Notes: a model not told the origin generated them from the letters alone. A stretch of 5,037 nt of DNA from a virus (IMGVR_UViG_2667527898_000023); one strand, 5' to 3'; shown: positions 276-5,037, numbered from the stretch's first letter. Program-made: numbers and translations.

Positions 276-455
276 GGATTGAGCCTCAGATTAATGTTAA
301 GCGTCTTGCAGGACGCGTAATGTTAACTGGGGCTTTTCTCTATCTGCCTTTTGGTGTTCATGCCTGAGGCAGATAGCCTCAAGCACCCGCAGCAATTCTA
401 CTTAACTCACGTCACCTCGCCAATATGAAATCAATCAGAAAGGTGATCCATAAAA
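219..455 (-). promoter_or_regulatory. hok mRNA 5' leader region; candidate site of antisense Sok-like RNA on + strand
   Basis: 237-bp non-coding stretch upstream of hok on the coding strand, with a hairpin GCGTC-TTGCAG-GACGC (301-316) flanked by direct TAATGTTAA repeats, and a 9-bp inverted repeat CTATCTGCC/GGCAGATAG (348-376). A weak + strand promoter-like pair TTGCCT(232-237)-17-TAACCT(255-260) could drive an antisense RNA. Structure seen; function inferred from hok/sok paradigm. Confidence 0.3.
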
Positions 456-1142
456 TCACTCCTTCTCTTCTTTTCCGTAGTGGAGTTGGCCAATTTTGAT
501 AAGAGGGCGTCCCTGAGATTTGCGGTGTAGATTGGTATCGCGCAGAGAATACACACAGCCACAATATTCCTGCTGATAGAATTTTTCGCGCTTGCTGATT
601 TCAATCATACGGGACGAGCCGCCCTGCTTGCGCCAGTTATAATCCCAGTATACCATACCCGGATAATGCGCAACAGCTCGCCGCCCACACTCGTTAACCT
701 GCTGCATATTTTTCCAGCGCGAAATGCCCAGTGAACTGCTGATCACACTGAAACCATTTTCAGCAGCGTACAACGCTGTCCGCTCAAAACGCATGTCAAA
801 ACACATGGTACAACGGATCCCCCTCTCAGGCTCCCATTCCATTCCTTTGGCACGTTCAAACCAGTTGTCGGTGTCGTAATCAGCATCGATAAACGGCACG
901 CCGTGTTGTTCAGCAAAGCGAATATTTTCATCCTTACGAATTAAATACTCTTTCTGAGGATGAATGTTCGGGTTGTAGAAAAAGATGGTGTAGTCGATTC
1001 CCGAGGCCTGAAGCGCCTCCATCACTTCACCGGAACATGGAGCACAGCAAGAGTGCAGTAGTAGTTTGTTTGCCCCGTTTGGGAGCTCCAATTTAGGCCG
1101 TTTGAAATCAGCAATAGTCATAAATATTTTTATTGGGGTCAT
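456..1142 (-). CDS. DUF208/QueH-like protein (putative epoxyqueuosine reductase-family Fe-S enzyme), 228 aa
   Basis: Translation contains [14 protein letters not shown] near the N-terminus plus later cysteine pairs ([18 protein letters not shown]), matching my recollection of the QueH (DUF208) cysteine signature. No Shine-Dalgarno before ATG 1142 or the alternative ATG 1121, so the start is uncertain. Confidence 0.55.
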
Positions 1143-1295
1143 GAAAATAGCACAGAGTGTAGCATCAGAGCAGGGCTATCGGGAATATATGTCTAAATCT
1201 GGTAATATCTGGTTTTGACGCAAAGCGGACAACCACGCTGGCTCTACCCTGCGCCATGAAAATGTCAATTCACATCTGAACTAATGCTCTTTAAT

Positions 1296-3566: not shown

Positions 3567-3657
3567 GAGTCGCTCCATAAAACTGAACGCCAAAAGTTTA
3601 ATAATCAAAACCAAAGAAAGTCAAGAAACAAAACCATCTGTGTTTTAAAATCAAAAC
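3567..3657. promoter_or_regulatory. Divergent switch region (PR-like and PRM-like promoters, repeated candidate operator motifs)
   Basis: 91-bp AT-rich intergenic region between divergent cro-like and cI-like genes. Three direct CAAAAC(C/A) motifs at 3606, 3629, 3652 (23-bp spacing). Reverse-strand promoter TTGACT (3623..3618) -18- TAAACT (3599..3594). Forward-strand -10-like TAAAAT (3646-3651) placed so transcription would start at or near the cI ATG. Confidence 0.5.
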
Positions 3658-4296
3658 ATGAGCAAGCAAACAATATCTGAACGCATAACCCAACGTATGC
3701 ATGCGCTAAACCTGAAAGGCAAAGACCTTGTCAATGCCACTGGCGCATCAAAAGGCTCCGTAAGTCAATGGATGAACGGTGGAGGAGCGCCGTCCTCGCG
3801 TTACATAAGTTCACTGGCAAAAATATTGAAAGTAAACGAAAATTGGCTTCTTAATGGAGGAGAGTTAAATACAGGTGATTCGCTTGATCTATCTTTACCG
3901 CCGATAAAAACGGTTCCGCTACTATCACTTCAGCAGGCAGCAAGCTGGAGTGATTATATGAAAAATTCCTCAATAACCTCTTGTGTGCAGCTTGTCGGAG
4001 AAATCCCGGCCAATACCTTTGCAGTTGTTCTAGAGAGTGACAGTATGTCAACATCTGGTGGGGGAGTTTCCATCCCAAATGGTTCAACAGTTTTTGTTGA
4101 TCCCGATCGAACCGTACAACCAGGAAATATTGTCCTTGCCTTACCCAAAGGGACCACAACACCTGTCATTCGTAAACTGGAGATAGAAGGGCCGGATATT
4201 CTTTTAGTCCCCACGAATCCTCGCTACCCTTCAATTATGCTGGATGATCTATCTTGCATATTGGGCGTATGCTTTAAAATTCAACAAGATATTTAA
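3658..4296 (+). CDS. CI-like phage repressor: N-terminal HTH (XRE-like) plus C-terminal S24 (LexA-like) peptidase domain, 212 aa
   Basis: N-terminal HTH-like region (GKDLVNATGASKGSVSQWMNG); C-terminal domain has the Ser/Lys dyad context ESDSM (Ser129) and VIRKL (Lys173), 44 residues apart, as in LexA and lambda CI. Divergent from the cro-like gene. No SD before the ATG. Confidence 0.85.
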   Translation: MSKQTISERITQRMHALNLKGKDLVNATGASKGSVSQWMNGGGAPSSRYISSLAKILKVNENWLLNGGELNTGDSLDLSLPPIKTVPLLSLQQAASWSDYMKNSSITSCVQLVGEIPANTFAVVLESDSMSTSGGGVSIPNGSTVFVDPDRTVQPGNIVLALPKGTTTPVIRKLEIEGPDILLVPTNPRYPSIMLDDLSCILGVCFKIQQDI

Positions 4297-4745: not shown

Positions 4746-4820
4746 ATGGATTTTGACACAATCATGGAAAAGGCTTACGAAGAATACTTCGAAGGCCTTG
4801 CCGAAGGCGAAGAAGCTCAC
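4746..4820 (+). pseudogene. Small prophage gene disrupted by IS1 after codon 25
   Basis: ATG 4746 with SD AGGTGA upstream, 1 nt after the previous stop. Native reading MDFDTIMEKAYEEYFEGLAEGEEAH ends where the IS1 inverted repeat begins (4821); the ORF-track ORF 4704..4901 is a chimera reading into IS1. Confidence 0.5.
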
Positions 4821-5037
4821 GGTAATGACTCCAACTTATTGATAGTGTTTTATGTTCAGATAATGCCCGATGACTTTGTCATGCAGCTCCACCGATTTTG
4901 AGAACGACAGCGACTTCCGTCCCAGCCGTGCCAGGTGCTGCCTCAGATTCAGGTTATGCCGCTCAATTCGCTGCGTATATCGCTTGCTGATTACGTGCAG
5001 CTTTCCCTTCAGGCGGGATTCATACAGCGGCCAGCCA
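4821..5037 (-). mobile_element. IS1 insertion sequence, partial (right end with terminal inverted repeat); continues beyond window
   Basis: 4821-4843 GGTAATGACTCCAACTTATTGAT is the IS1 right inverted repeat; the reverse complement of 4821-5037 matches the 3' terminal about 217 bp of IS1 as I remember it. Confidence 0.93.
4836..5037 (-). CDS. insB: IS1 transposase InsB, C-terminal part (partial, 5' end outside window)
   Basis: Reverse-strand translation ends ...[53 protein letters not shown] with stop TAA at 4836-4838 inside the inverted repeat, as in IS1. Confidence 0.9.

Follow-up and report, generated by a model that had tools for sequence, protein, structure and literature searches.

A queH gene carried as optional cargo in the early region of Qin/Rac-like lambdoid prophages of Escherichia coli

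Organization of the locus

The stretch of viral DNA analysed here (IMGVR_UViG_2667527898_000023; 5,037 nucleotides, referred to as the window) contains an open reading frame (ORF) on the minus strand at positions 456 to 1142. Counted from its first ATG the ORF comprises 228 amino acids, and its stop codon occupies 456-458. A preliminary description, drawn up from the sequence, had reported this ORF without stating its strand and had likened the product to the epoxyqueuosine reductase QueH. The gene, referred to as queH, and the features in and around it are as follows.

431 to 455, minus strand: junction after the queH stop, with the remnant tail (…MDHLSD and stop) of a small hydrophobic ORF (alignment A1).
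456 to 1121, minus strand: queH coding sequence, 221 amino acids, with PF02677 matched over its full length, a conserved start and the coordinates given by PGAP in ST95-32 and O157:H7.
555 to 563, minus strand: CGC, residues 194-196, containing Cys194 and Cys196 and aligned with YCGC of T. maritima QueH.
801 to 812, minus strand: CTMC, residues 111-114, containing Cys111 and Cys114 and aligned with RCERC of T. maritima QueH.
1032 to 1055, minus strand: HSCCAPCS, residues 30-37, containing Cys32, Cys33 and Cys36, from the alignment with 7lc5 (this and the two preceding motifs in the numbering of the 228-residue ORF).
1122 to 1142, minus strand: in-frame 5' extension (first ATG plus six codons), probably 5' UTR and not coding, the first ATG not being conserved.
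1156 to 1169, minus strand: invariant block TCTGATGCTACACT with the extended -10-like TGcTACACT, the only conserved upstream sequence and a candidate native queH promoter.

Upstream of queH, and in the same orientation, are genes for a Cro-like protein (P22_Cro, 1.8e-15), a YdaT/cII-like protein, a replisome organizer (phrog_3729, 4e-256) and a DUF977/Ren-like protein. Beyond these early genes lies a divergent repressor gene with HTH and S24 domains. Downstream of queH is a hok/sok module, recognized both by Pfam (HOK_GEF, 3e-23) and by Rfam (sok, 120.5 bits), and the hok promoter begins about 33 nt past the queH stop. Matches from Pfam, Rfam and PHROGs therefore confirm the previously described location of the gene between replication genes and hok. 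The GC content of queH ranges from 0.43 to 0.52 and that of its flanks is similar, so the gene is not set apart by composition.

The junction that follows the queH stop reflects a deletion of approximately 380 bp. The deleted segment is present in HannyBb, KY208 and GPEC657 and absent from the window, O157 Z1832 and E118 (alignment A1), and its loss joins queH to the hok/sok leader. In HannyBb, KY208 and GPEC657 the small, very hydrophobic ORF that left its tail in the window is intact (L002 6690-7200, L005 and L006) and looks like a membrane peptide or toxin.

Translation start of queH

Two in-frame ATG codons had been put forward as candidate starts. Both exist; however, only the second (1121-1119) is conserved in all alleles compared. 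In the allele alignment, ATT stands in place of the first ATG in GPEC657 and in a Klebsiella IncF plasmid copy (pIncF), and GPEC657 additionally has an in-frame TAA between the two ATG positions. The first ATG was rejected as the queH start on this basis and the gene is assigned to 456 to 1121 (221 amino acids), since the second ATG alone is shared among alleles. Homologues start 21-24 residues before the CCAP motif, and in the window the second and first Met codons lie 24 and 31 residues before it, respectively. The 221-residue product is identical to RefSeq entry WP_000150294.1, which bears the name "epoxyqueuosine reductase QueH". In E. coli E118 (L008), the sequence at the first ATG reads TTTTTATG in place of TTTTCATG.

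Family assignment, cysteine motifs and fold

The protein matches the Pfam family PF02677 (QueH) with an E-value of 1.1e-65; its score of 221.5 bits exceeds the cut-off of 23.5, and the match takes in model positions 1-174 of 175. The assignment to QueH/DUF208 passed this profile test, and the motif and family match lies far beyond chance. An NCBIfam HMM search with the window protein gave no match, though PGAP names the protein QueH. By sequence search, the QueH of T. maritima (PDB 7lc5) aligned over the whole domain with an E-value of 7.8e-22. An AlphaFold2 model, built from a 53-sequence alignment (A3), reached a pLDDT of 95.2 and a pTM of 0.91 and superposes on 7lc5/9d86 with a TM-score of 0.92 and an rmsd of 1.2 Å over 179 columns. 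The five best fold matches in the PDB are all T. maritima QueH (target-normalised TM 0.90-0.93, rmsd 1.2-1.7 Å); then come TtuA, LarE and further folds of the PP-loop type, with E-values poorer by 10 orders of magnitude. The structural comparison that the preliminary description had suggested as a check agrees with the profile result.

The three cysteine motifs were found at the positions claimed for them, and all seven family cysteines (C32, C33, C36, C111, C114, C194 and C196) are present. As judged from the sequence, the set CCxP(C/D)…CxxC…CxC of the putative metal site is complete. In the alignment with 7lc5, Cys32 and Cys33 correspond to Cys9 and Cys10 of the T. maritima enzyme and Cys36 corresponds to Asp13; mutant structures of the latter protein are available at two of the aligned positions, C9S (9d86) and D13N (9dco). 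The cysteine at position 36 was considered as a sign of a divergent or inactive enzyme, and this idea was rejected because cysteine is the family norm. CCAPC occurs in 120 of 120 close homologues. In a survey that drew on 150 representatives of 50%-identity clusters, those bearing the motif have CCAPC in 104 of 114 cases, CCAPD in 3, and CCGPC or CCSPC in 6. Across A3 the seven cysteines are invariant in all 53 sequences, a result that is partly circular because the sequences had been pre-selected for the motifs. Residues N52, Y59, R62, E99, R103, R111, K137 and Q184 (221-residue numbering) are invariant there as well.

T. maritima QueH (7lc5, 7lc7 and 9deu, with the mutants 9d86 and 9dco) is accordingly the structural reference for the window protein, with the same fold, the same Pfam family and aligned CC, CxxC and CxC cysteines. 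The two differ in several respects. They share only 30-31% identity, the window protein has the majority cysteine of the family where T. maritima has Asp13, and it is longer by about 20 residues at the N-terminus and by a basic tail of about 25 residues at the C-terminus. Both extensions are common to gammaproteobacterial homologues. The gene is confirmed as a genuine, intact member of the QueH family. This identity, although correct, is already known and is not a new call, since RefSeq gives the name QueH to exactly this protein and the family has been characterized both structurally and biochemically.

In phage-oriented resources the family is less well described. PHROGs places this gene in phrog_3217, labelled 'unknown function'. 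The first position of the phrog_3217 profile corresponds to an internal Met (residue 34 of 221), past the catalytic CCAPC, so that this motif is missing from it. Many metagenomic gene calls begin at the same internal Met. Phage QueH is in this way systematically mis-annotated and shortened, both in phrog_3217 and in metagenomic calls, which is of practical consequence for phage annotation.

Upstream element and leader

Homology among queH alleles begins at the invariant block TCTGATGCTACAC (1169-1157, minus strand), upstream of which GPEC657 is unrelated. In the slightly longer block TCTGATGCTACACT, the TG of the extended -10-like element lies at 1164-1163 and the hexamer at 1161-1156, and transcription would be expected to start near 1149. 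The element was present in 64 of the 64 IMG/VR prophage copies where the gene was located, and it lies 32-36 nt 5' of the start codon in the Klebsiella IncF, Erwinia-type and 90%-identical copies. It reads GGTGCTACACT at the Erwinia-type chromosomal queH, and takes the form TGCTAAAAT both in the 90%-identical copy of non-phage context and in an IncFIA/IncR plasmid. From its conservation across these settings, the element may be the native promoter of queH, captured together with the gene and allowing expression in the lysogen independently of pR. Within the candidate extended -10, E118 has TGCCACACT in place of TGCTACACT.

A consensus promoter scan called no promoter upstream of queH, the -35 of the candidate element being poor, and the same scan found no intrinsic-terminator-like site in positions 1 to 1800. 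The latter result separates queH from the phage morons of the lambdoid nin-like region. In other respects the two are alike, each being an optional gene between conserved early genes and variable among otherwise identical prophages; queH may also have a promoter of its own.

The lack of a Shine-Dalgarno (SD) sequence at either candidate start, to which the preliminary description had drawn attention, is real. The anti-SD duplex energy over the 20 nt before the start is +0.9 kcal/mol for the first ATG and +0.7 kcal/mol for the second, compared with -8.5 to -11.0 kcal/mol for hok, the DUF977 gene and the YdaT-like gene. It is not, however, a phage-specific trait, as the Erwinia-type, Providencia and plasmid copies of the clade are equally SD-less and have A/U-rich leaders. 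The 5' leader of queH showed no stable fold (z = 0.08), and an Rfam search at E ≤ 1 detected no riboswitch or other RNA near queH apart from sok downstream.

A variable slot in the prophage backbone

In every E. coli and phage context inspected, queH comes directly after DUF977 in a Qin/Rac-like lambdoid prophage, and this order holds in 63 of the 64 IMG/VR loci where the gene was located. The surroundings vary on both sides. The immunity region may be of the cI/LexA-like, DicA/DicC or RacR/YdaS kind, and the downstream neighbour may be hokD, an NgoMIV-type restriction-modification (R-M) pair, the Kiwa genes KwaA/KwaB or a DUF1971 gene. Conversely, prophages that share the window's immunity, replication, DUF977 and hokD genes carry unrelated genes in the slot, which in the Qin prophage of K-12 is occupied by relBE. 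Since the same backbone is found with other cargo and the neighbours are not fixed, QueH is optional cargo and not a core lambdoid function. The earlier remark that it is not a standard lambdoid function holds up against these sister prophages.

In Qin/Rac-like prophages, the interval bounded by the DUF977 gene and hokD (276-1295 in the window) is a hotspot of cargo exchange. Its contents include QueH alone, QueH with the NgoMIV R-M pair, QueH with Kiwa and, as in K-12 Qin, relBE. Other prophages have a 269-residue orphan on the opposite strand, or a pair of proteins of 320 residues (with a weak HEPN/RES match at its N-terminus) and 333 residues (with a weak GNAT match). For these orphan genes PADLOC gave no match and Pfam no solid one; they may encode defence functions not yet characterised.

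The carrier prophage of ST95-32 also encodes four tRNAs (Gly, Thr, Lys and Ile; L001 15970-16279). As these are not the queuosine-bearing tRNAs for Asn, Asp, His or Tyr, QueH is not there to service them.

Distribution in genomes, phages and plasmids

At a threshold of ≥90% nucleotide identity, queH is found in 995 of 5,426 complete E. coli genomes, with 1,014 of its places on chromosomes and 3 on plasmids; 82% of the genomes are free of it. The matches listed carry the annotation QueH, those of O157:H7 and O25:H4 strains among them, and the RefSeq QueH annotation spans about 1000 E. coli genomes. The gene is also carried by the isolated temperate phage HannyBb, where the protein (95% amino acid identity) is annotated as hypothetical. 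In IMG/VR, 215 contigs encode relatives, and the best 80 of the 215 are 100% identical to the window protein. The scan says little about other phage lineages because these best 80 are all identical E. coli prophage copies.

Approximately 300 plasmid records contain a QueH homologue. They come from Klebsiella, Escherichia, Acinetobacter, Bacillus and Ligilactobacillus, and many of the plasmids are conjugative, including members of IncF. The homologues on Klebsiella plasmids have 88-92% amino acid identity. Two such loci were inspected, on the Klebsiella pneumoniae IncFIA/IncR plasmid pKp2177_2 (L017, 1-12300) and on an IncF plasmid (L015). One Klebsiella plasmid queH adjoins the IncFII repA, and a second is flanked by a type II CBASS operon and by genes for a NACHT protein and a dGTPase.

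In comparison, all complete E. coli genomes searched carry queG (5,426 of 5,426), so that in this species QueH is always a second, redundant enzyme. The universal presence of queG and the accumulation of epoxyqueuosine (oQ) in an E. coli yjeS/queG knock-out (PMC4646009) are both consistent with the earlier statement that K-12 uses QueG.

Chromosomal relatives and selection

The nearest relatives outside E. coli have 79-90% amino acid identity, are named QueH, and belong to Erwinia, Gibbsiella, Photorhabdus, Providencia, Proteus, Sodalis, Rahnella and others. Individual values are 86% for Erwinia sp. P7711, 84% for Providencia and 79-86% for Gibbsiella, Photorhabdus and Proteus; among the loci fetched, QueH of non-phage neighbourhoods is 84-90% identical. 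The order on an Erwinia-type contig is purL-queH-glrK-yfhG-glrR-glnB, and the Providencia gene lies near tmcA. These non-phage QueH proteins of the Enterobacterales are near-identical to the window protein, of the same length class and with the same SD-less start, and the Erwinia-type locus has the TGCTACACT element upstream of queH, as in the window. What differs is the setting, a housekeeping neighbourhood in the one case and a prophage cargo slot in the other.

Among six prophage alleles, pairwise Nei-Gojobori estimates give a dN/dS of 0.03-0.05 at dS values of up to 0.46. In all alleles examined the queH ORF is intact, and this is true also where the integrase or DUF977 gene of the prophage carries a frameshift. 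The low ratio together with the intact ORFs indicates strong purifying selection on the QueH protein.

Proposed role of the prophage-borne QueH

The best explanation for the whole of these observations, to which we assign a probability of about 0.75, is that the gene encodes a functional QueH, captured as a self-contained cassette, that provides a corrinoid-independent conversion of oQ to queuosine (Q) in the carrier cell. QueH would act as an iron-sulfur, cobalamin-independent tRNA epoxyqueuosine(34) reductase and convert oQ to Q in tRNA-Asn, tRNA-Asp, tRNA-His and tRNA-Tyr. The cassette would consist of the candidate native extended -10 promoter, the SD-less A/U-rich leader and the coding sequence. 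It may have been captured from an enterobacterial chromosome; in Qin/Rac-like lambdoid prophages it is now optional cargo, a probable moron, in the variable slot that separates the replication/DUF977 genes from hokD. Maturation of oQ to Q in the lysogen or infected cell would then no longer be tied to corrinoid supply. Corrinoid-independent Q is the likely effect because QueG is B12-dependent and E. coli lacks de novo B12 synthesis. In work by Zallot dating from 2017, QueH genes of other bacteria reportedly complemented E. coli ΔqueG.

The biochemical background for such a role is available from studies of both enzymes. E. coli makes oQ-tRNA (PMC5372724; PMC4646009), and the QueG reaction is cobalamin-dependent (PMC4646009). 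QueG (YjeS) of E. coli performs the same reaction as QueH, oQ-tRNA to Q-tRNA (PMC5372724), and both genes occur in the same cells. It is nevertheless an unrelated protein with two [4Fe-4S] clusters and cobalamin (PMC4646009), and its gene is core and not mobile. QueH has been described as the iron-dependent, cobamide-independent alternative (PMC6461909; PMC13443448). In S. aureus, which has both enzymes, their expression profiles differ, and the authors attribute this to cofactor availability (PMC13443448). A literature search combining QueH, epoxyqueuosine reductase or DUF208 with prophage found no paper on this gene or on prophage or plasmid copies of it.

If transcription came only from pR, queH would be silent in the lysogen, and the gene could instead be an early lytic auxiliary function that shifts host tRNA from oQ to Q and so tunes the decoding of NAU/NAC codons in phage genes, with no part in lysogenic conversion. 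Such a role would fit the placement of queH, co-oriented in the early rightward operon after cro, the cII-like gene and the replication genes, no terminator being predicted ahead of it, as well as its presence in HannyBb, which is an isolated and viable phage. According to a 2026 preprint, Q increases and oQ declines in phage-infected Shewanella because queG is induced; the step can therefore matter during infection, which leaves some probability to a role in the lytic cycle or in conflict. We nonetheless regard a purely lytic function as unlikely. Autonomous expression is suggested by the extended -10-like element, which accompanies queH onto plasmids and is found at the chromosomal copies too. 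Many carrier prophages appear to be defective (their integrase or DUF977 gene being frameshifted, for example) yet keep queH intact, and conjugative plasmids, which have no lytic cycle, maintain the gene just as well. The upkeep of homologues on some 300 plasmids points to an advantage for the host cell instead. In another reading, QueH sits in a defence hotspot and takes part in phage-host conflict: the oQ or Q state of the anticodon would alter the susceptibility of the lysogen's tRNAs to anticodon nucleases, or QueH would otherwise protect from superinfection. The company kept by the gene is suggestive here, since its neighbours include Kiwa (PADLOC KwaA 1e-101, KwaB 3e-159), the NgoMIV-type R-M pair and hok/sok in prophages, and CBASS, NACHT and dGTPase genes on a Klebsiella plasmid. 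Guilt by association is, however, weak evidence in a cargo hotspot, and no partner gene is constantly linked to queH. QueH itself matches 0 of 5,027 PADLOC models at E ≤ 0.01, and near-identical enzymes reside in ordinary non-phage neighbourhoods, making a conflict function improbable.

Two further readings dispense with a tRNA-related benefit. With queG universal in E. coli and 82% of genomes lacking queH, the gene might be a neutral hitch-hiker without effect, its job already done by QueG. This is contradicted by the dN/dS of 0.03-0.05, which shows selection over dS values of up to 0.46, and sits poorly with ORFs that stay intact even in decaying prophages and with independent mobilisation onto plasmids in Klebsiella, Escherichia, Acinetobacter, Bacillus and Ligilactobacillus; we hold it to be very improbable. 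Finally, the preliminary description had allowed for a deazaguanine-related pathway, and QueH could in principle act on 7-deazaguanine in phage DNA, in a pathway of the DpdA type, in place of tRNA. The formation of oQ requires QueA acting on preQ1 in a polynucleotide, and we know of no DNA pathway that produces oQ. Phages do have 7-deazaguanine derivatives in their DNA, with precursors shared with queuosine (PMC5372724), and the clusters responsible (DpdA with preQ0 genes) resemble the present case in being phage-borne and in their queuosine/deazaguanine chemistry. Their signature genes are nevertheless absent from the annotation of the queH prophage, and QueH acts after QueA, on tRNA-bound oQ. 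The annotation of the 45-kb prophage stretch, like that of about 40 of the 45 kb of HannyBb, contains no Tgt/DpdA-like transglycosylase, FolE, QueC, QueD, QueE or QueA, and the window protein is 84-90% identical to QueH of non-phage contexts. That part of the preliminary description finds no support in these annotations, and a role in DNA modification seems scarcely credible.

Returning to QueH as a reductase of host tRNA, a wider reading would make the mobile, self-expressed queH cassette on prophages and plasmids of gut Enterobacteriaceae a lysogenic-conversion gene that acts on the tRNA epitranscriptome and uncouples the last step of queuosine synthesis from corrinoid supply. This extension is tentative, and on present evidence rather doubtful. 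If it were true, NAU/NAC decoding, and possibly stress, biofilm and phage-resistance traits, would be altered in about one-fifth of E. coli strains, O157:H7 and O25:H4 among them. The mobile, B12-independent reductase would in that case exemplify an auxiliary gene that rewires the epitranscriptome of the host and not its metabolism. Strong purifying selection maintains this redundant tRNA-modification enzyme on prophages and conjugative plasmids, in species that all possess QueG. Carriage of queH may benefit fitness; any selective benefit is conjectural, because we know of no phenotypic difference established between oQ- and Q-tRNA in E. coli.

Other features of the window

The cI-like repressor gene (3658-4296, plus strand; HTH and S24 peptidase, 212 amino acids) is also SD-less, with an anti-SD energy of +0.9 kcal/mol over 3638-3657. 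The cI mRNA of lambda is leaderless, and the SD-less repressor of the window is reminiscent of it. At the equivalent place in ST95-32, PGAP annotates only a 112-residue 'LexA family protein'. Towards the end of the window, the best-matching genomes align only to about 4818-4820, and the last ~220 bases (4819-5037) diverge, marking a mosaic junction.
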